In this document: in pieces, positions 20,765-31,706 of the stretch
Numbering within the stretch: the stretch's first letter is position 1
Layout: each line of letters begins with the position of its first letter
Origin: an uncultured archaeon
GTDB lineage: Archaea; Thermoplasmatota; Penumbrarchaeia; JASLWR01
Assembly (NCBI GenBank): GCA_964342815.1
Contig: CAYFHS010000036.1
Location: 1 to 44,487 of the forward strand
Direction of reading: 5' to 3'
Length of the DNA: 44,487 bases
Notes under the pieces: model-generated
Database searches by the model: none
Told to the model about the DNA's origin: nothing
The model's input: only the letters and a program-made list of their open reading frames with translations
Translations under genes and position numbers: made by a program

Positions 20765-22181
20765 ATGCAGATGAAGAAGATATGTTTCGTCCTGGACCGT
20801 TCGGGATCCATGAGGGGGATCAAACTCGATTCCGCAAAGGATGGGGTTCCGTCGCTTTGTGGAGGGGCTATACGCATAATGGGACCGGGACATGTTAGGT
20901 TATATCGACACCTACATCTCCTTCATCAGCTTCAACGACATCGTCCAGGTGCGGCTGACGCTCCGCCCGGTAATGGATGTGATTCCTAAACTCAAGCATG
21001 CTCTCGAGAAAACAACACCCCGGGGAATGAGCGCTCTATGGGATGCATTCGGTGCCGCCGTAAGGGAACTCAGCGAGGAAAACCGGGAGGAGGACGAGAA
21101 CTGGATGGTTTTGCTAACGGATGGCCGTGACAATGCCAGCCGCAAGTTCACGCTGAAGAAATTGAAGGAATATATATTGAAGTCCAGGGTCAAACTAAGA
21201 ATTATGATCATAGGTCTCGCGGATTCCCTGGAGGAGTTCAAACTGCGTCATCTTAGTACCCATTTCCGAGGCCAGTACGTAAAATCCGCCTCCGATACCA
21301 TTAGCATACGCTCCTCCTTTGCCCAGGTGGCTAAATCAATAGAAATTGGACATTTCGCCCCTCACTTGGAGATAGATTCTAGAAAATCCTTGTACGGGGA
21401 CCTTAAAGCCGAAGAACTGATCAGGCTGGGTATTAAGGCGCCCCCCTCCCAAGAAAAAATTTCTAAAAGAGATGATACAGATATCTTCAAAATGACAATG
21501 ACCCCCCTTCATCTAAATTTAACAGAAGCAGTGTTGAGGTTAAACAAGGCAAGACAGGTGGAGTGCGACCACGAAATATCCGATGTGGGCAGATCCGAAG
21601 GAGCTGAGATCACCGGTGTTTTGAATATAGCGACACATCAGATACTGTACTGCAAACACAGGAAAGTGGGTGGAAACGAGTTAGAGGGGGCATGTACCTG
21701 TGACGATTTCAGACATAGGGGCCGCAAGCTTGGGATTCCCTGCAAGCATCTGTGGATGGTAATAGGAACGGGTAGCTCGGACCTCTGCGCCGAGGATAGG
21801 TTGAAGGAGGATATCGCGCGGGTACTCACAGGAATCGAAGGTGATATGGGATTGGATGCTGCGCAAGCTGCAAAGATCATCGGATTGATGCAGGACAGGC
21901 TCGCGCCGCTGGTGACTAAGACCAGAGGAAGCCCACCGAAGCAATCGGCAGTTCCTATACCAGCAAGTAAACAGGATACACAGACAACATTGGAGAACCT
22001 GGTGCTGGATTCTCTTGCAAAGAGACCTGGGGGTATGACCGTCGACAGACTTTGTGCAGAAATGAATGTGAAAACCGATAAGGGAAAAAAGAAGGTTCAA
22101 ATCGTCCTGAAATTTCTGGAGATGAAACGAAAGATCAGCAGAATGAATGATAAATTTTACATTAATCAAGTAAAATCCTAA
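20765..22181 (+). pseudogene. VWA-SWIM zinc finger-wHTH protein, 5-prime part disrupted by a frameshift and a stop
   Basis: MIDAS DRSGS in ORF 20765; continuation RRFVEGLYA-stop-WDRDMLG...SALWDA...LLTDG in the +1 frame from 20850; SWIM CTC...CKH; C-terminal wHTH-like segment. Confidence 0.75.
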
Positions 22182-22251
22182 GTGAGCTCGATCATCAGAC
22201 ACTGACCATTTCCCGTGACTTATCGAATTTCCAATTATTTTCACAAATCGA

Positions 22252-22890
22252 CTATTCGATCGGTAAATTTAAATGTTCTATCTCTTGGATCCGTTCGTCC
22301 AATGCCTTCCTCAATCCCTTGATAACAATGTCCGATTGGACATGCAGCTCCTTCCCTAATTCCCTGCTGGCCTCGAAATGCATTTTATAAAAATCCTCAC
22401 TGCGCTTTTTAAGGGTCCGCTCAAGTATTTCCTCTATCGAACCCTTCTTGCTCATAATACCTCTCATGACCCCGATCCATCCTAACCTGTCGATGGCATC
22501 GGCATCGTATACAATTTTTTCTTCAATGGTTTTCTGAGGGATCATCGATGTTGGTGAATGGGCCGTTATCACGTTTGTAATCTTTACAATCTTATCAGGA
22601 TCCAACCCGATGCATTCGAAGTATTCCTCGGCTATTGTGGCGCCCACGAGACCGTGCATCACGTCCGCCCCGTTTATAACACGTCCAATATCATGGAACA
22701 GCGCACCCACTATGACCGTGAAAGGATCAGATACTTCCGGTATCGCCTCTGCTATTTTTATAGCATATCTGGTCACTTCCAATACATGCGAATAGTCATG
22801 TCCTTCAGTATGTGCGTGCTTTTGTTTTACAAACGAAACCATGTCCCTGATCATGGCCAATTCCTTATTGTTGAGCTTCCTGGTAAACAT
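22252..22890 (-). CDS. HD-domain phosphohydrolase
   Basis: HDYSH...FHDIG...H...AHS...DAD.IDRLG; AGGTGAGG RBS before ATG 22890. Confidence 0.9.
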   Translation of the reverse strand: MFTRKLNNKELAMIRDMVSFVKQKHAHTEGHDYSHVLEVTRYAIKIAEAIPEVSDPFTVIVGALFHDIGRVINGADVMHGLVGATIAEEYFECIGLDPDKIVKITNVITAHSPTSMIPQKTIEEKIVYDADAIDRLGWIGVMRGIMSKKGSIEEILERTLKKRSEDFYKMHFEASRELGKELHVQSDIVIKGLRKALDERIQEIEHLNLPIE

Positions 22891-22901
22891 ATACCTCACC
22901 T

Positions 22902-23804
22902 TCAAATAAATACATGTATGATCGAATCACCCGGTACAACCGCTGCTTCACGTCTCACATATCCAACGGTTCCATCGCAAGGGCAGCTCAACACCTTTTC
23001 AATTTCCGGTTCAAATGGTTTTAGCAGTGCTATGATCTGACCCTTTTCCACTCGGTCACCAGGTTCCACCACAACCCTTATGAATCCCATCTCTCCCACC
23101 TTGGGGATCACCCTGTCATGATAAATTCCGTGGTTTTCCGGTTCCCTAAAATCTCCGGGGATAACCGCTCTTTTTTTAAGCAGGTTCATTAGACCATACA
23201 AACATCTTTCAACGTTTTCTATTTCGATCCTTCTTCCCCCACCTATCTCGATAGTACACGACCTCACTCCCTGGTTCCTGATGACAGGAGCGATCAATCC
23301 TTCTTCCTCCCTACGGACCCATATGTGCTCAAATAATAAATAAGCCGCGTAGCCAACGTCTTCTTCTTTGGGCACGCGAACGTGTGAAATGAACTTACCC
23401 GGTCCGCCGGAGTGAATGTCGATCAGATAATCATGTTTTTTAAATATTGTGGAGTATAGAGAATTCCCCAGCCTCCCGGTATTCGAGTCCATGAGATCGG
23501 GATAGATTCGGTTCATGTCTATACCGTCGGGCCCCGTCCTCTGTTTAAGAAGGAACGCTGGAGGGTTGATCATGGGTAATATGACAATGGTCCCGTTGAT
23601 TTTTTCCGGTAGTTTTTCCCTAAGAAGAAGGAGAGTTAAAATACCGTTCCATTCGTTCCCGTGCTGCCCTGCTGTGAAACAGATCCGTTCCCCGCTCCCG
23701 CCGGATATTGTTGTCATGGGCAGGCACTCCCCTTCCACCTCCAGCAAATAATGGTTTTTCCCCTTTAATAAAAGATCTAGATCACCTATCTTAACCGTCC
23801 GCAC
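22902..23804 (-). CDS. Succinylglutamate desuccinylase/aspartoacylase (M14) family protein with C-terminal biotinyl/lipoyl-like domain
   Basis: AGQHGNE, DMNR, IDIHSG, TIEIGGG; VEPGDRVEKGQII segment; GGAGGAG RBS. Confidence 0.9.
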   Translation of the reverse strand: MRTVKIGDLDLLLKGKNHYLLEVEGECLPMTTISGGSGERICFTAGQHGNEWNGILTLLLLREKLPEKINGTIVILPMINPPAFLLKQRTGPDGIDMNRIYPDLMDSNTGRLGNSLYSTIFKKHDYLIDIHSGGPGKFISHVRVPKEEDVGYAAYLLFEHIWVRREEEGLIAPVIRNQGVRSCTIEIGGGRRIEIENVERCLYGLMNLLKKRAVIPGDFREPENHGIYHDRVIPKVGEMGFIRVVVEPGDRVEKGQIIALLKPFEPEIEKVLSCPCDGTVGYVRREAAVVPGDSIIHVFI

Positions 23805-25116
23805 CCTTTTCTCCTCCGATCATCTCTTTTTGCATAAGCTCAAAAACGGCACATGAGGCTGCGAACATGTCGGCCACATCCGTTTCCGTCAATCCGAACA
23901 TGTCCAATGATTCAGGGCTCAGCCCCATTCCCCTCTCGGTTTCTATCCCACCGTACCCGGAAAGATTTACTACGAATCCTTCTTTGTGATCCATACTCAA
24001 GAAGGGACTTCTTGCTATTCTCATAAGGAGACCCATTGGAATTATTTCATCTCCGTTCCTTCCAACGTAAATCCGAATATCGAAGTTTCGTTCACTTTTT
24101 TTCCACTTCATGGGGACGAATCTCACAGCCTCCACAACTGTATAGGGGAACGGTTTTCTCTCATTGCCGAACTTGGCCCAAAACTCGTTCATACTTAAAT
24201 TCAAGATTGCCTCTATGTCCGCTCGTTCGTCCAGTGCATAGATGCCAGCTCCTCCGCTGCCCCCGTACGGCTTGATGACCACAGGGGATGTGCCTGCCTT
24301 GAAGAAATCCGCCGCCACTTGCTTCAGCTCTTCCAAATCAGGGCATAACCGGGCCTTCAAAGGATGGATCCGATATTTACCTAGCAGGACGCTGTACTTT
24401 TCAATGAGTTCATACGTGGAATATTTATCATCCGTGGTTCGGTACACTCTATTGGCAAACAAGGTCATGAGATCACCGGTACTTGCCCACTTGCCAAGGT
24501 CTTGATGCCGCCTTATCACGCCGTCGCCGACTATACCATGGAGCGGAATATCATCGATAAACGCATATCCATTATCCACTCTTATCCTTGGAAGGATCTC
24601 GGGATAAGCTCCCATCATTATTTTTGCTCCACCGAGCTCAAGGTTTGTGTCGGGACCGATGGTAATAAAATGGGCATCTTCCCCACTTTCCTTTATAACC
24701 TGGTAGAAAGCTTCCGCCACAATGAACTTTTCATGTATTACCTTATCCTCATTGAGATGGCCGATCAAAATGTTAGGTTCTTTCGGTAGGAAACGAAGCA
24801 TCTCCACGAAGCTTCTGCAAGCCTTTTTGGTATATTTTACTGGCAAAAGGGAAATACCGCGGCTGTTACCGCCGTTCGTTTCGATGATGCAGAACCTTTT
24901 TTGGCCCATATGGGAAGAGACCATAAAATCCACGCTTCCCAAGAAGAAATGGTCTGTGAATATCCTCCCGTGACCTCCCTCCCGTAACTTTTGTATTGCC
25001 TGTTGGATGATCCTGTCACACGTTTTCGGATCCTGTTTCTCTCTGATGTCCTGAAGAGTTACCATTTGTCGACCCAGCACGGAAGCATATCTAACAAGTG
25101 CATCATCATTGATCAT
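23791..25116 (-). CDS. Circularly permuted ATP-grasp amidoligase
   Basis: ANR...DDK, VVIKPYGGSGGAG, FDIRIYV, VVNLSGYGG in the C-terminal half; the normally terminal D...ExN strands (SVDF...IIETNG) lie near the N-terminus. Confidence 0.8.
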   Translation of the reverse strand: MINDDALVRYASVLGRQMVTLQDIREKQDPKTCDRIIQQAIQKLREGGHGRIFTDHFFLGSVDFMVSSHMGQKRFCIIETNGGNSRGISLLPVKYTKKACRSFVEMLRFLPKEPNILIGHLNEDKVIHEKFIVAEAFYQVIKESGEDAHFITIGPDTNLELGGAKIMMGAYPEILPRIRVDNGYAFIDDIPLHGIVGDGVIRRHQDLGKWASTGDLMTLFANRVYRTTDDKYSTYELIEKYSVLLGKYRIHPLKARLCPDLEELKQVAADFFKAGTSPVVIKPYGGSGGAGIYALDERADIEAILNLSMNEFWAKFGNERKPFPYTVVEAVRFVPMKWKKSERNFDIRIYVGRNGDEIIPMGLLMRIARSPFLSMDHKEGFVVNLSGYGGIETERGMGLSPESLDMFGLTETDVADMFAASCAVFELMQKEMIGGEKGADG

Positions 25117-25125
25117 GGTAACGCC

Positions 25126-26325
25126 CTAACAATTCAATACCCATTCTGGTTCAAGTACTGCGCTGACCTGGCCCAGTTCCAGTTCCAGGATCCTGTCCAG
25201 CACTTCTTCACCCCTGTAATCGAATGGGAATTGTGCGGGACCGGATAAATAGATTTTGGCTTCCTTTCCTCGAGTTTTGATCCCGAACATGGTTCCTCCG
25301 TCACCCATCTTAAGATCCACGAGGGATTCCATCATGGGGAAAGTGTAACCCCCTCCATGCGGTAGGATGTTTGCGTTGACAAGTTTGTCGTAGGCACCCG
25401 TTTGCTCCGCTCGTTCAAGAAAATTTAATTTTTCCATTATCTCTTCCGAGAGATTCGGTGCTGCGGATAATATGTAGCCACCAGCATTCGCTTTCAGGGC
25501 AAGTGGAAATCGACCCTTGGGCGTAGTAGAGTTCACTCCCAGAAGCATCTCATTAAAGGATCGAAGACCCTGGTGGCAGTGGTTCGAGATGAATTTAAAG
25601 TCATCGAACAGCTCAGCGGCGAAGAGGAGACGCTTTTTCTTTGAAAAGTCGTTTGCAAAATCGAAAGCGTCAAGGTACTCTCTTGCATTGTCACCCTGAA
25701 CATAATTTAGGGTTCCGAATTGAGTGGGAATAATCTCCATTCTTTCCTGGACCATTTTGCTCTGATGACAATACATTCCCATATGATCTCCATTATCCAT
25801 TCTTAACTCCGGTATACCAGAGTGGATCAGACAAACGTATGGGGGAATGTCCATATCGCTCTTGACCACCTTGAAAACATCAACGAAGTGATTGCTTTTG
25901 TTGATGTCCATATCGACTTTTACCTCATCGATGAAGTGTTCTGTCACTAACAAAGACCTCGCTCTTTCAATTATTTCTTCACAATCAGGTATTGAGTCCA
26001 ACGAACCTACCAGTATCCCGCAACCATTCGGCAACACGTCCAAAAAGATCAATTTCTCCCTTCCGTTTCCCCAGATGAGCTTACCCCCGTAACCAAAACC
26101 GTTTTGCCATCGTCTCAAGTTCCTTGTTACACACTCGTCCGGAGCACCGATAAAAACTGCTTTTTCCTCCATACCCAGCTCTTCCTGGGCATGATGTATC
26201 TTTGAAAGGCCGAATCTCATGTTGGCCTGAGACAACTGGGAGCTGGCATCATTTAATCCTGTGGTGAATAGATATTTTCCCGCTTCTTCCAACTGTGAAA
26301 ACCTCACATTATCCTTTAGATTCAT
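25126..26325 (-). CDS. Highly divergent RtcB-fold protein
   Basis: Collinear matches to RtcB ligand motifs: APD, PNGCG, SNHF, IHSG, NHCH, LPHGGG. Confidence 0.75.
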   Translation of the reverse strand: MNLKDNVRFSQLEEAGKYLFTTGLNDASSQLSQANMRFGLSKIHHAQEELGMEEKAVFIGAPDECVTRNLRRWQNGFGYGGKLIWGNGREKLIFLDVLPNGCGILVGSLDSIPDCEEIIERARSLLVTEHFIDEVKVDMDINKSNHFVDVFKVVKSDMDIPPYVCLIHSGIPELRMDNGDHMGMYCHQSKMVQERMEIIPTQFGTLNYVQGDNAREYLDAFDFANDFSKKKRLLFAAELFDDFKFISNHCHQGLRSFNEMLLGVNSTTPKGRFPLALKANAGGYILSAAPNLSEEIMEKLNFLERAEQTGAYDKLVNANILPHGGGYTFPMMESLVDLKMGDGGTMFGIKTRGKEAKIYLSGPAQFPFDYRGEEVLDRILELELGQVSAVLEPEWVLNC

Positions 26326-26464: not shown

Positions 26465-28126
26465 TCAATTCCCGGCCATCATGGCTTTCATATCCGACTC
26501 CACGTCGGTATTCGGCGCGATGTCAAAGTTCTCCACAAGCACATTCAATACATTGGGGGACACGAAAGCTGGAAGTTTTGGCCCGAGGCGTATCTTTTTT
26601 ACTCCGAGATGCAGCAGGGCGAGAAGGACCAGTACGGCTTTCTGCTCGTACCATGCGATGTTGTAGGAGATGGGCAGGTCATTGATATCATTTACACCCA
26701 CCGCCTCGGCAAGTGCCTTTGCCACCAGCACCAATGAATAGGAATCATTGCACTGGCCTGCGTCGAGCACCCGGGGGATGCCTCCTATGTCGCCCAGGCC
26801 CAGCTTGTTATACCTGTACTTCGCGCAGCCTGCTGTAAGTATGATGGTGTCCTTGGGTAGTGTTTCCGCAAATTTGGTGTAGTAGTTACGCTCACTCTGC
26901 CTGCCGTCGCAGCCCGCCATGACGAAGAAACGCTTGATATTGCCGGCGCTGATGGCCTCAAGCACCTTGTCCGCCACTCCCAGCAGCGTGTTGTGGCCAA
27001 AGCCGCCTGTGATCTCGCCCTTCTCGATCCCATGGGGGGGCGCGCACATTTTTGCATGATCGATGATCTGCGAAAAATCCTTACTGCCGCCAAGGGGCCG
27101 ATCGGGGATGTGTTTCACACCCGTAAAACCTGTTACACCGGTGGTGAATAACCGATGTTTGTAGGATTCCTTTGGAGGTACCAGACAGTTTGTGGTATTC
27201 AGCACCGCTCCGTTGAAGCTTTCGAACTCATCCTTCTGTTTCCACCACGAACCCCCGTAGTTGCCCACTAGATGAGAGTATTTCTTGAACGCCGGATAGT
27301 AATTAGCCGGCAGCATCTCTCCGTGGGTGTAGACGTCCACGCCCGTGTCTTTTGTCTGTTCCAGAAGCTCTTCCATGTCCTTGAGATCGTGGCCAGTTAC
27401 AAGTATGCCGGGATTGTCCTCGACGCCGATATTGACTTTTGTTACTTCCGGATGCCCGTAATTTGTGGTATTGGCTTCGCTGAGAAGTGCCATGGTCTTC
27501 ACACCGTACTCTCCGCATTTGAGGGTTAGGCCCACCAGGTCATTCACACCTAGGGAGTCATCCAGCGTGGCCGCGAGAGCTTCCTTCATGAAAGAAAATA
27601 TCTCCGGGTCTTCCGCACCGAGAACGAAGGCATGGTGCGCATAGGCTGCCATCCCCTTCAACCCGTAAAGAATTATGGAACGGAGGGAGCGGATATCTTC
27701 ATTTTCTGCTGAAAGTATTCCAACCTTTTCCGCGAGAGCCGTCATCTCCGAAGGATCTTCCGTGGAAATATCGGCATGAGGTGGCAGAGGTCCGTCATAC
27801 TCTTTGTCGTTTTTGTCATAGTAGGCAGCATGGAAACCAGCTCTTATACGGTCTCTGATGCCGTACGAAGCTATTATCTTATTGCTTAAGGCCTTGTCGT
27901 CGAAATTAGCGTTAGTGATGGTAACGAAGAGGTTTTCCATCACGAATTCGTCCAGTTCCGCAGTCTCGATCCCGAGTTCGCCGGCTTTGTCCCCATACCA
28001 TGATATCACTTTCAACTGGTGAAGCAGCACGTCCTGAAGATCCGAGGTCGGTGCCTTCTTTCCGCAAACTCCCGAGCGGTCGCAACCGGTTCCCCTGGCT
28101 GTCTCTTCACATTGATAACAGAACAT
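26465..28126 (-). CDS. hcp: Hybrid cluster protein (hydroxylamine/NO reductase)
   Basis: MFCYQCEET...GC...[46 protein letters not shown]; AAGGAGG RBS at ATG 28126. Confidence 0.97.
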
Positions 28127-28397
28127 TTTATTCCTCCTTATCATAAAGTAAACAATTTATTTTTAGTATTTATATTATATCAGGTATTCTTTTTATACTG
28201 AACTAAACCTATAATGTATCCATAGTATTTATAGGAATTTCCAGGCTTTTAACCAAAATTCAGAAGAATTGGATGAATAATCACTTTTTTGAATTCTATC
28301 CCCCAAAAATATATTTCCCATCATTAATATTATCGCCATAGAGGGCTTTGGACGTCCCTTTATCTTTTTGCGGTTTTACCAAGCCAAGGGGGATATT

Positions 28398-28825
28398 TCA
28401 TCTTGCCCAATGTAAGAAGTTTCCGCCTTTATCCTTGAAACCGGTTACCCCCGCTGCCCCTGTAATAAGAGTGATTGCCTGTACCATCACCCCATAGGTG
28501 GCCTCATCCGGTTCTCCATGACCTTTACGGAGATATCACCTCTTGCCGGTATCTTATCGGGATAAAATTCCTTCAAAGCCTTCCTACAGCACAAGTACGC
28601 CCCTGCCGTTGTGGGGCAGGCATGCCCGGTTAACTTCACCACATCTCTAAATCCGTATGCCAAAATTCCCACACTTTTTGAGAATGCGCCGAGTATTTCT
28701 CCAAGGGGTTCCCTCATTATTACTGGCTGAACTTCCGCAATGATATCATGGAAGCTATCAGGAAATACGGTTTCATCCTCTTGGAATGAATCCGAAGGTG
28801 GATTTCGTGATTTTCTGTTTTGCAT
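28398..28825 (-). pseudogene. Frameshifted, truncated copy of the FmdE-like gene
   Basis: Near-identical to the 5-prime half of 31711..32418; one G missing at 28520/28521; homology stops at about 28433. Confidence 0.85.
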
Positions 28826-29369
28826 AATTCAATTCCTCTTTTGATTCAATCACTATGTGTTGAGTAAAGTATCTAGACCGGCTGCTATTTTGTAATCAAA
28901 TGATCCATCAAACCCATTCTTCCTGAAGTATCTCTCCTTTGATGCCCACGACTTTAACTTTTATCGGTATCTTACGGTTTGCCTTTTTTGCGGCACTAGT
29001 CGCCAGGTTCAGGAGACCACGGCAGCAGGGAACCTGCATTATCATCACGGTAAGTGAATTGATCTTTGCGTCGTCTATCATAGAGACCAGCTTGTTAAGG
29101 TACATTTCCTGCCCGGAATCCAGCTTGGGGCAGGCTATAGCGAGGCCCTTGCCCTTGAGATGATCCTTGTGGAAATCCCCTAACGCGTAGGCCGTACAGT
29201 CGGCGGCCAAAAGCACATCCTTGCCCTGGTAATAGGGCGCAGTGGGTGGCACCAGATGAAGCTGGGTGGGCCACTGCCGAAGTTGGGACGGCCTCGTTGG
29301 GCCATTGTCGTCGTTTTCCTCTTTTTCGTTGTCTTTTCTTAGTTCCATCATTTTAGAACCCGGGCATCC
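28433..29369. repeat. Copy A of a ~0.94-kb direct duplication
   Basis: Aligns with 32025..32956; 28599..29075 is identical to 32192..32668 (477 bp, compared by eye). Confidence 0.92.
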
Positions 29370-29384
29370 ATTGAATCCTTTCAT
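28908..29384 (-). CDS. C-terminal-domain-only paralog of the 4Fe-4S protein at 32501..33355
   Basis: GCPGS...SQLRQWPTQLHL...ACPKLD...PCCRGL; ATGA overlap with the hemerythrin stop; lacks the ferredoxin domain. Confidence 0.7.
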   Translation of the reverse strand: MKGFNGCPGSKMMELRKDNEKEENDDNGPTRPSQLRQWPTQLHLVPPTAPYYQGKDVLLAADCTAYALGDFHKDHLKGKGLAIACPKLDSGQEMYLNKLVSMIDDAKINSLTVMIMQVPCCRGLLNLATSAAKKANRKIPIKVKVVGIKGEILQEEWV

Positions 29385-30175
29385 ACTTTCACCACATTTT
29401 CTTTTAATTCTGTTACAAATCTATCGATAAGTTTTTCGTATTTTTTATGTAAATCTTGATGTTTCATATCCACCTTTCCGAACTTGGCGAAGAGAGTGCC
29501 TATCTGGCCTATGGTCAATTGGCGGTCCATCCATGGATAGAGAATCTCGTCCTCCTTCTTTATGTGCTCCGTGAGAAGCTCGGCATAGGCACGGAGATGC
29601 TCCTTGACGGCGGCATTATTCCTCTCCTCCAAGCCCTTAAGTAGAGCTCTCACATGGGAACGGGCCTTTTTATGGTCCTCATGCATGGCCTTGATGACAT
29701 CCTGTTCCTCGTCAAAATATTTGAATAGAATGTCCTCTTCCTTGGCATGGTGGTATCTGTCAGCGTATTGTTGTATAAATTCCACTCCCGAAAGCACCAG
29801 TGTCCGATCATTTTCTATCTGAACGTCCACCTTTTTTATTATCACGGGGATCAAGGCCACCCATCTCTTAATCAATCGATGCTCATCCACCAGCTTTTTC
29901 AGAGGTGGAGAATATTTTATCTCTTTGTTTCTGCGAATCTTTTTCTTTGGGCGGGGTATCTCCATTTTCCTGTCAGGATAGATGATCCCAGCGATCCTTC
30001 CCATCAATTCCTGTTCGTCCTCGGGAGATAGGTCGTGTATCTCCACGATGTCCTTCAACAGACATGTACCCACGCTGCAAGGGGCACAACCTATTCCGTA
30101 TCCATCGAGGATTTCACCTATTTTCGGAAACTCTTTGATGATCTCTTTTATACCTCTATTCAGATATTCTTCCAT
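29381..30175 (-). CDS. Hemerythrin (HHE) domain protein with N-terminal Cys-containing DUF1858/ScdA-like domain
   Basis: IGCAPC motif; DEH, HHAKEE, EDH, HIKKED ligands; GAGGTGA RBS. Confidence 0.87.
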   Translation of the reverse strand: MEEYLNRGIKEIIKEFPKIGEILDGYGIGCAPCSVGTCLLKDIVEIHDLSPEDEQELMGRIAGIIYPDRKMEIPRPKKKIRRNKEIKYSPPLKKLVDEHRLIKRWVALIPVIIKKVDVQIENDRTLVLSGVEFIQQYADRYHHAKEEDILFKYFDEEQDVIKAMHEDHKKARSHVRALLKGLEERNNAAVKEHLRAYAELLTEHIKKEDEILYPWMDRQLTIGQIGTLFAKFGKVDMKHQDLHKKYEKLIDRFVTELKENVVKV

Positions 30176-30215
30176 CGATATCACCTCGCTCGATGTTTCC
30201 CCAGAAGGGAACTAT

Positions 30216-30443
30216 TTAGGCACTGACCACTTCTTTTACGCCTGGCACTAGCTGTTTCATCATTCTTTCCACACCTGCTTTAAGCGTCATCCGGCTCATG
30301 GGACAACCGGAGCATGCACCGGTCAGTCTCACCTTCACAAAGCCCTCGGATGTGACGTCCACGAGCTCGATATCCCCTCCGTCCGCTTGCAGTCTAGGTC
30401 TGATAATATCCAATGCCTTATTCACTTCTTTTTTCATGTTCAT
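30216..30443 (-). CDS. NifU/NfuA C-terminal domain protein
   Basis: IRPRLQADGGDIELV...GACSGCPMS. Confidence 0.93.
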   Translation of the reverse strand: MNMKKEVNKALDIIRPRLQADGGDIELVDVTSEGFVKVRLTGACSGCPMSRMTLKAGVERMMKQLVPGVKEVVSA

Positions 30444-30515
30444 TGCTTTCGACCTCCATTTGTTTTAAATTATTCATCAACCTTACAAGTTATTGAAGGG
30501 ACGTGATCGCCTTTC

Positions 30516-30710
30516 TCACCCTTCTATTTTGATTGCATCCACGGGACATATATCTTCTGCCTCGCGGTTCTCATCGATTTCATCCTCTCCGATCTCTATC
30601 TTTAATGGTTTGGCAATATCACCCTCTAATGTCCAATTATTGCATATCGCTTCACATGCACCGCAGCCGATGCATGCCTCTTCATCGAAGATTACCCGAT
30701 ATTTTTTCAT
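30516..30710 (-). CDS. Single-cluster ferredoxin
   Basis: CIGCGAC plus distal CPVDAI; starts immediately after the upstream stop. Confidence 0.9.
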   Translation of the reverse strand: MKKYRVIFDEEACIGCGACEAICNNWTLEGDIAKPLKIEIGEDEIDENREAEDICPVDAIKIEG

Positions 30711-31706
30711 CTATTCGGCCTCCTTCCGGTCATTTGGCGTAAAGCAGCAATAACCGATTTTGTCACATTTACTCTTGACCTCTTTCCATTCCTCTCCGGA
30801 AAGCACCTCCAATGCGATCTGGTAGAGGATGTTGTCTTCCTTGAAGATGTGACGTTCCAGTTCTTTTGTCAGGTAACTACCCAACTCGATTATTTTCACC
30901 CGAAATTCGTCGAAATCATGATCCTCGGGATTGTGGGCATATTGATAGAGTTCTTTTTTTCTTTTTCGCATCTCCACGTGGTCCATCCTCATTATGTTTG
31001 ATGGTTCTGTGATGTCATGTCTCTCAATTACAGTAAAAAGACAATCCTCTTCCCTCTCATGATGGGACTCCGCCTCTACCAGATGATGCGAGATATCCTT
31101 TAACCTGGGGAGATCATCTTCCATATCGGCGAAGCTGGCCACTTCTTTGATCCTGTCTACCACTCCGTCCAGCCCGTCCAGGCTCTTAAGGATCACCTTA
31201 TGTTCCTCCATCAACGTATTGATAGGATGCGGCGGAGGGACCTCCCTCTTGATCGATACCAGCGAATCCCTGATCATGTCAAGGTGAATGTCGCACAAAC
31301 TTTCTCGAATCTCCTCATGCGATACTCCCTCCTTTATCAATCCCTGCTCGATAATGGCCAGGGTTTTGGCGTCCACCAACTCTAAGAGGGACTTTGCTTC
31401 ATTTTGTGTCTCGTGGGTCATTTCACCGTCCTTGAGCTCGCGTAGTAGCTTTTTGGACTGCGCCTTCTTGTCGTCCCCATTGTTGACCCTTTTGACATCC
31501 AGGATCCATTCTCCATCCCCTCTTTTTTCCTTCAACAGCTCAAAGTCGCCCTTGGCGGTCAGCATGTGAACCAAGGGAACGGGATCGAACTCGAGTATGA
31601 TCCGCAGTTCATCACCAACTTTGAGACTATCCAGTCCCGGAAATATCAGGTTCTCGCGATGGTGGTGTTCCATCTCTCTCACATCGATTATATTCGTTTG
31701 TTCCAT
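30711..31706 (-). CDS. DUF2249/DUF438-hemerythrin fusion protein
   Basis: IIDVRE...DPVPL (DUF2249-like), IEQGLIKEG...LCDIHL (DUF438-like), HPINTLMEEH, HHEREE, HIFKEDNILY, IGYCC. Confidence 0.85.
   Translation of the reverse strand: MEQTNIIDVREMEHHHRENLIFPGLDSLKVGDELRIILEFDPVPLVHMLTAKGDFELLKEKRGDGEWILDVKRVNNGDDKKAQSKKLLRELKDGEMTHETQNEAKSLLELVDAKTLAIIEQGLIKEGVSHEEIRESLCDIHLDMIRDSLVSIKREVPPPHPINTLMEEHKVILKSLDGLDGVVDRIKEVASFADMEDDLPRLKDISHHLVEAESHHEREEDCLFTVIERHDITEPSNIMRMDHVEMRKRKKELYQYAHNPEDHDFDEFRVKIIELGSYLTKELERHIFKEDNILYQIALEVLSGEEWKEVKSKCDKIGYCCFTPNDRKEAE

Follow-up and report, generated by a model that had tools for sequence, protein, structure and literature searches.

A cluster of four co-oriented genes in an uncultured Thermoplasmatota archaeon (Penumbrarchaeia, JASLWR01) encodes what looks like a real, so far uncharacterized enzyme system. 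The cluster lies in a 44,487-nt stretch of DNA (GenBank assembly GCA_964342815.1, contig CAYFHS010000036.1, positions 1 to 44,487 of the forward strand; "the window" below means this whole stretch). Its predicted products are a very distant relative of RtcB (here called X), a circularly permuted ATP-grasp ligase (AG), an AstE/AspA-type zinc deacylase of family M14 (M14) and an HD-domain phosphohydrolase (HD). In the reading that we favor, with a probability of roughly 0.4, X and HD would form a core acting on nucleic-acid or nucleotide termini, AG and M14 would be an add-on to this core, and the whole would be a horizontally spread accessory cassette.

X escapes ordinary sequence searches. It has no match at E ≤ 0.1 among the Pfam and NCBIfam models, including those for RtcB, no match in the Protein Data Bank (PDB) by single-sequence phmmer, and a profile search of the PDB with X returns no RtcB. 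The relationship is seen at the level of structure. An AlphaFold2 model, with an alignment of 32 X sequences as input, has a pLDDT of 93.5 and a pTM of 0.92, and a Foldseek search with it gives 16 matches at E ≤ 0.001, 12 of them listed as RtcB chains and the top ones all RtcB (best E 1.5e-8). By VIA-align, RtcB structures superpose on X with Z 21.9-19.9 (about 300-319 residues, rmsd 3.2-3.8 Å), the best of them being 2epg (Z 21.9, 296 aligned residues, rmsd 3.3), while the next unrelated fold reaches Z 5.1. Local hhalign comparison with 25 canonical RtcBs of the same phylum gives sub-significant segments only, residues 141-246 (GNHF...IH) with E 0.0018 and the C-terminal strand with E 0.017.

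The active-site residues of RtcB are largely retained in X. When the 32 X sequences and 25 canonical RtcBs are aligned together with MAFFT, D63 (PD motif), W73, N145-H146-F147 (GNHF), H168 (IHxG), R232 and Y370 of X stand at positions invariant or dominant in RtcB. H323-G324-x-G326, invariant in the 32 X sequences, aligns with the H-G-x-G that is invariant in the RtcBs, and the penultimate Lys also forms an aligned column (30/32 X-family members, 25/25 canonical RtcBs). C102 (PNxCG, for DINCG in RtcB) and H251-Q252 (for HN in RtcB) are invariant in the X sequences and in the right order. With a fold matched only by RtcB and most active-site columns invariant, X is, judging by its model, a true and deeply divergent RtcB-superfamily enzyme, as had been proposed in the first-pass annotation, which was made from the DNA letters alone. 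Net charge and isoelectric point give no useful separation of X from RtcB.

RtcB catalysis proceeds through a His-GMP intermediate to RNA-3'pp5'G, which is then attacked by the 5'-OH, and involves a metal-binding Cys (PMC13247085). Since X shares the RtcB fold and carries its motifs in the same alignment columns, by analogy it probably uses a similar chemistry, namely metal-dependent phosphoryl activation through a His-NMP intermediate. X is not the housekeeping tRNA ligase, because a canonical RtcB is encoded elsewhere in the same genome (G000:C7:22045-23379, E 8e-170).

AG has only sub-threshold ATP-grasp matches in Pfam, confined to residues 222-369 (best PF14397, 17.3 bits versus a cut-off of 31.4), and every NCBIfam match is far under its cut-off. 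Its AlphaFold2 model (pLDDT 91.3) aligns over residues 2-405 with permuted enzymes (Z 14-16), and essentially its full length is matched by eukaryotic glutathione synthetase, glutathionylspermidine synthetase (GspS), YgiC/YjfC, 3K1T and 3N6X (Z 12.7-15.9). Canonical ATP-grasps (carbamoyl phosphate synthetase, Ddl, LysX/ArgX, PurT and TTL/TTLL) align over residues ~108-430 only (Z 12-13.5). An invariant Mg-site motif, E79-x-N81, stands N-terminal to the ATP-binding K282 and the GSGGxG loop. The model therefore assigns AG to the circularly permuted ATP-grasps of the glutathione synthetase/GspS type, in line with the earlier reading of this gene from its sequence. AG has 258 database relatives, all unnamed or labeled hypothetical; AG and X are each single-copy in the genome.

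The two hydrolases belong to recognizable families, and both had been correctly identified in the first-pass annotation. M14 matches PF24827 (AstE/AspA; E 3.2e-21, 76.2 bits versus a cut-off of 25), and its H48-x-x-E51, N98-R99, H131 and E186 align with the solved relatives 3cdx and 3na6, covering the HxxE/His zinc ligands and the catalytic Glu. Among NCBIfam models, DoeB (TIGR02994, equivalog) comes nearest, with 72.7 bits versus a cut-off of 402.7, which rules out an ectoine-degradation DoeB. HD matches PF01966 (E 5.9e-15, 56 bits versus a cut-off of 22), with the PDB relatives 3b57 (Lin1889), 2pq7, 3gw7 (YedJ) and 5dqv (1e-10 to 6e-7), and scores far under the NCBIfam equivalog cut-offs. 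Its metal-ligand positions H31, H66-D67, H79, H111 and D129/D131 (counted from the ATG start) do not vary among 27 HD proteins linked to X. Because the protein is 23-62% identical (mostly 42-51%) to the HDs adjoining X in other phyla, its sequence identifies it as the same X partner, relocated to the end of the operon. PADLOC finds no defense-system match except a weak HD/Cas10 one, and none of its models covers X or AG.

The neighborhoods of X were compared in 86 loci by clustering of open reading frames (ORFs) and by hidden Markov models built from the clusters, 64 of these loci being well flanked (1.5 kb or more on each side). Of these 64, 32 have HD no more than 3 kb from X and 27 have it within 300 nt, nearly always on the strand of X but on no fixed side of it; AG occurs in 8 and M14 in 5. 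A Pfam scan of the 150 immediate flanking genes in 75 loci gives HD 33 times, and every other family at most three times. Conservation is modular, with X and HD as the core and AG and M14 as an add-on that is optional from the side of X. The first-pass annotation had suggested a neighborhood search across archaea and bacteria: the pairwise links do recur in distant phyla, and the full four-gene set in the studied order is confined to relatives with an 84% identical X (L005, L007, L112).

Seen from AG, the association is much tighter. AG neighborhoods were collected from 80 metagenome loci, among which the close relatives (L112-L140) include ten that are well flanked (at least 1.3 kb on both flanks); M14 is present in 10/10 of these and X in 9/10, in several gene orders and strand arrangements. 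A distant AG clade (L141-L191, 51 loci) is without X. Instead, 41 of the 51 loci encode a Clp1/NOL9-like P-loop polynucleotide-kinase homolog (PF16575, 4e-28; NOL9/Clp1 in the PDB, ~2e-5). This gene precedes AG by a median of 76 nt and shares its strand in 38 of the 41 cases, and in 22 loci a weakly AstE-like gene lies just downstream of AG. Recurrent genes nearby include FmdE+DksA-zinc-finger and GNAT genes upstream, a convergent α/β-hydrolase gene and also oxidoreductase genes. A 414-aa gene upstream of the distant-clade AG was considered as a cryptic X and rejected, since it is the Clp1-like gene. The Clp1-like kinase, the distant permuted ATP-grasp and the weak AstE-like protein make up a separate and seemingly undescribed cassette (examples are L182:3509-4753 and L141:6283-7545). 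Given the nine of ten close loci with X and the Clp1-like replacement in the sister clade, AG is almost obligately linked to X or a different phosphotransfer enzyme. On the X tree, the association with AG needs at least four separate events, and a Chloroflexi AG-linked clade is sister to a clade linked to the endonuclease EndoQ (support 96).

The X family comprises 328 relatives in a set of 5.8 billion proteins (221 cluster representatives at 50% identity), none with a functional name and the named ones labeled hypothetical. It is found in 274 of 185,579 species genomes. The hosts, for the most part of uncultured lineages, include Asgard archaea, Bathyarchaeia, Methanocellales, Nanoarchaeota, Thermoplasmatota (3 of the 301 genomes searched), Anaerolineae, Planctomycetota, Spirochaetota, Aerophobetes, Atribacterota and Clostridia. 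Being rare and patchy across phyla, X has the distribution of an accessory, horizontally transferred gene. Co-orientation of four genes could by itself arise by chance, but their linkage does not, since X is so rare and yet stands near nine of ten close AG relatives, with M14 near all ten and HD within 3 kb of half of the well-flanked X genes.

Table 1. Genes and promoter-like element of the four-gene cluster, with positions in the window.
Feature	Position	Strand	Size or spacing	Assignment
X (P0001)	25126-26325	minus	399 aa	predicted divergent RtcB-superfamily enzyme, predicted nucleotidyl acceptor His323
AG (P0002)	23791-25116	minus	441 aa	predicted circularly permuted ATP-grasp ligase
M14 (P0003)	22902-23804	minus	300 aa	AstE/AspA-type zinc deacylase, C-terminal beta-hybrid domain
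HD (P0004)	22252-22905	minus	217 aa (TTG 22905) or 212 aa (ATG 22890)	metal-dependent phosphohydrolase
TATAAATATAATAAAAA	26340-26356	minus	15-31 nt 5' of X ATG	TATA-box-like AT-rich element

The four genes are closely packed, with 9 nt between X and AG, a 14-nt overlap of AG and M14, and 11 nt between M14 and HD if HD starts at its ATG (a 4-nt overlap if it starts at TTG), close to the spacings of about 10, -14 and 11 nt given in the earlier annotation. The gene upstream of X on the same strand is hcp (hybrid cluster protein, 26465-28144), and the 139-nt gap between its stop codon and X contains the TATA-like element (Table 1). From its sequence this element could serve as an archaeal promoter that gives the four genes a leaderless or short-leader transcript, and because of its position in the gap before X, the set is probably driven by a promoter of its own. 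The hcp gene is followed by hemerythrin, DUF438 and DUF2249 genes (26465-31706 in all, minus strand). In the close relatives L005 and L006, the position upstream of X is occupied by hemerythrin genes (one with DUF438) and by Fer4, NifU and AF_0155 genes. The theme of the upstream genes is nitrosative or oxidative stress. EndoQ repairs deaminated bases, and a stress link common to these upstream genes and to the EndoQ-partnered X is conceivable. On the other side, a 187-aa minus-strand ORF just downstream of HD (21681-22244) has no family match and is probably not a gene, since it overlaps a convergent VWA+SWIM zinc-finger gene (20892-22181, plus strand).

Outside the studied lineage, X occurs in several other arrangements. 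In six loci labeled Aerophobetes or Clostridia (L022, L036, L049, L055, L072, L078), the order is HD-X-EndoQ with gaps of 0-19 nt, so that the genes are translationally coupled; L022 (7313-13361) runs from EndoQ directly into nusA-infB, while most of the others have a prolyl-tRNA synthetase gene between EndoQ and nusA. In Planctomycetota, a TetR gene and a DksA-type zinc-finger gene precede X, which is followed by PolX (PolX is downstream of X in three loci), and in Loki- and Helarchaeota the order is Metallophos-HD-X-AG. Two genes downstream of X were considered as hidden AG relatives and rejected, one of 412 aa being EndoQ and one of 585 aa a HEAT-repeat protein. Lysine-2,3-aminomutase-like radical-SAM genes and ATP-grasp genes lie a few kb from X in a Lokiarchaeote (L002:12337-16926) and on an unclassified metagenome contig (that of P0007), the latter with a GNAT gene near X in addition; these may be genes for a β-amino-acid peptide or solute, or a coincidence.

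Distant relatives of X that are 25-28% identical to it (in L196 and on the contigs of P0196 and P0257) have varied neighbors. Some share overlapping operons with phosphatases of the HAD or His_Phos_1 type: one such operon reads 408aa-HAD-X, with DEAD/ResIII helicase and AbiJ-like genes after it, and another reads X-293aa-172aa-His_Phos_1. Next to a third relative stands a convergent SIR2-STAND-TPR gene. Some 450 nt upstream of one distant relative there is a full-length gene for a release factor; it is probably a normal release factor whose proximity is coincidental.

The analysis establishes four intact enzymes, with their folds and conserved catalytic residues, and a modular, non-random linkage of their genes; the chemical steps and the substrate class given below are inferred, and the two modules may share one substrate. 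By analogy with RtcB, X would bind a metal of the Mn type through C102, H146, H168 and H251, load NMP from an NTP (probably GTP) onto His323, and move it to a terminal phosphate to form substrate-pp-N; attack by a hydroxyl would then produce a phosphodiester and release NMP. The substrate would be a nucleic-acid or nucleotide terminus, with ends of the 3'-phosphate/5'-OH type. HD, being of the YedJ/YpgQ type, would cleave a nucleotide pyrophosphate linkage, either clearing NTP and by-products or undoing abortive substrate-pp-N caps; that it acts as the eraser of the X product is a guess. AG would join an ATP-activated carboxylate to an amino acid that retains a free α-carboxylate, and the AstE/AspA deacylase would take this amino acid off again. 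A writer and an eraser are the simplest reading of such a ligase-deacylase pair. The first-pass annotation had gone further and proposed a single reversible-modification system of two writers and two erasers. Its enzyme identities and the linkage of the genes stand, but the genes fall into two modules (X+HD and AG+M14) and the complete set is confined to one narrow lineage.

Action on nucleic-acid or nucleotide termini is ranked first because of the prior set by the RtcB fold and because of the EndoQ, PolX, helicase and Clp1-like contexts. Several observations nevertheless weigh against it. The sequence similarity of X to RtcB is sub-significant (hhalign E 0.0018 over one segment, and no Pfam match), and the Cys and HQ motifs are paired with those of RtcB by eye only. 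In the studied operon, X has Asn398 (codon 25129-25131) in place of the C-terminal Lys; in RtcB this Lys contacts guanine, and the Asn may reflect a changed nucleotide preference. The studied X and its 84% identical relative both end in ...VLNC. EndoQ and PolX are each linked to X within a single group of related genomes, and EndoQ yields 3'-OH/5'-P ends, unlike the substrates of RtcB. Across 60 loci, X shows no enrichment of neighboring tRNAs, and neither a tRNA nor an Rfam RNA is present in the window, beside X or elsewhere in it. AG and M14 resemble small-molecule enzymes (glutathione synthetase and DoeB), and X relatives are partnered with phosphatases of several folds (HD, HAD, His_Phos_1 and Metallophos), which fits the synthase/phosphatase logic of metabolism. 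Finally, one 743-aa relative (P0142) is an APH-type kinase fused to an X domain, and its neighbors, namely two radical-SAM genes, an aminotransferase, an SDR and two HAD hydrolase genes, constitute a metabolite-type cluster.

The last of these points lead to a second reading, to which we give a lower but still appreciable weight, in which X would apply RtcB chemistry to a phospho-metabolite. X would activate a phosphomonoester to R-pp-N and join it to a hydroxyl, the product being a solute, cofactor tail or natural product with a phosphodiester link; leftover phosphate would be removed by HD or another phosphatase, AG would add an amino acid to a carboxylate, and M14 would trim or recycle it. 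This reading comes second because of the kinase fusion (APH-type kinases acting on small molecules), the glutathione synthetase-like and DoeB-like partners and the varied phosphatases. The best structural matches of AG are glutathione synthetase, GspS and YgiC/YjfC, the nearest relatives of M14 are small-molecule deacylases such as DoeB, and the phosphatases paired with X relatives are of four folds. The GNAT, oxidoreductase and α/β-hydrolase neighbors of the Clp1-like/AG sister system also favor a metabolite, as do the rarity and patchiness of X, already clear within the Thermoplasmatota. On the other hand, the kinase fusion is a single case on a very long branch of the X tree, a dedicated search for long X fusions found none besides P0142, and the EndoQ, PolX, helicase and Clp1-like contexts indicate nucleic acids. 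Moreover, the characterized enzymes of the RtcB fold all act on nucleic-acid ends (PMC13247085). If a metabolite is nevertheless the substrate, X could tentatively be seen as the first RtcB-fold enzyme outside nucleic-acid ligation, an NTP-dependent phosphodiester synthase working on a metabolite phosphate supplied by a kinase. It is equally tentative that AG and M14 would then put a removable amino acid on the product and that HD would take off phosphate or pyrophosphate. Such phosphodiester-synthase logic would, if true, be a new biosynthesis parallel to the cytidylyltransferase/CDP-alcohol routes.

It is unlikely that the two modules have no joint function, X+HD and AG+M14 being independent two-gene units that are merely adjacent in this lineage. 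Such independence would account for the presence of AG in only ~12% of well-flanked X loci, for the occurrence of all four genes together only in close relatives, and for the position of HD, which is last in the studied operon and does not adjoin X. However, the link is nearly obligate from the side of AG (9/10 loci), it survives rearrangement and is seen at no fewer than four places on the X tree, and the sister clade swaps X for another phosphotransfer enzyme in the same slot. The least probable reading is modification of a protein tail, in which AG and M14 would add and remove C-terminal or side-chain amino acids in the manner of RimK/TTL and M14 carboxypeptidases, on X itself or a shared partner, thereby tuning X activity: the structural matches of AG include the protein-modifying ATP-grasps TTL/TTLL and LysX/ArgX (Z 12-13), AG strictly depends on X or a Clp1-like enzyme as neighbor, and the conserved X C-terminus aligns with the C-terminal Lys column of RtcB, but the best matches of AG are small-molecule rather than protein ligases, AstE/AspA enzymes of known substrate act on small N-acyl amino acids, and the few AG-linked X sequences in the 32-sequence alignment end in VLKI, AFKV or VLNC, with no common C-terminal signature.

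The preferred reading, an X+HD core for nucleic-acid or nucleotide termini, can be set beside known systems. Compared with RtcB (PF01139; 4DWQ/1UC2 from P. horikoshii, 2EPG from T. thermophilus and 7P3B from human), X shares the fold, the GNHF, IHxG and HGxG motifs, the Tyr and the C-terminal Lys column. It is only 10-15% identical and ~90 residues shorter, has PNxCG for DINCG, HQ for HN and HGGGY for HGAGR, and carries an inserted TRNxxRW segment. X is rare and patchy whereas RtcB is near-universal, and both coexist in this genome. Bacterial RtcB RNA-repair operons include rtcBA with RtcR, Rsr/Y-RNA-RtcB and PrfH-RtcB2. The X operon resembles these in combining an RtcB-type enzyme with accessory factors, there for end processing or rescue, in an accessory operon. 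The partners are different, however: HD, the permuted ATP-grasp and M14, or EndoQ, PolX and DksA-type zinc-finger proteins; none of RtcA, RtcR, Rsr and Archease is found beside X in the annotated loci.

The partner enzymes can be compared in the same way. AG matches glutathione synthetase, glutathionylspermidine synthetase, E. coli YgiC/YjfC and Mfla_0391 (3N6X) over its whole length, with the same placement of E-x-N, yet at ~10-14% identity, and its sequence marks it as a family distinct from the known permuted ATP-grasp ligases. M14 shares its domain and intact residues with succinylglutamate desuccinylase, aspartoacylase and the N-acetyl-DABA (diaminobutyrate) deacetylase DoeB, but is here linked to an RtcB-like gene. 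In TTL/CCP systems, ATP-grasp and M14 enzymes make up writer-eraser pairs, and M14 and AG likewise pair a deacylase with an ATP-grasp ligase. YedJ, YpgQ and Lin1889 are the best sequence matches of HD among solved structures, with metal ligands intact; YpgQ is reported as a nucleotide pyrophosphohydrolase, and the HD subgroup described here is marked by its adjacency to X in many phyla. The first suspicion that the combination of four genes was undescribed agrees with the full-text literature, mostly without subscription journals, in which we found no account of the X family or of the gene combination. The present work names three so far unnamed protein families. To our knowledge, no fold other than the highly conserved RtcB is known to join 3'-phosphate to 5'-OH ends. 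X would represent a second, deeply diverged clade of this fold, with the catalytic residues kept and a fixed HD partner of its own, and would imply either an unrecognized route of nucleic-acid end repair or a new use of RtcB chemistry.

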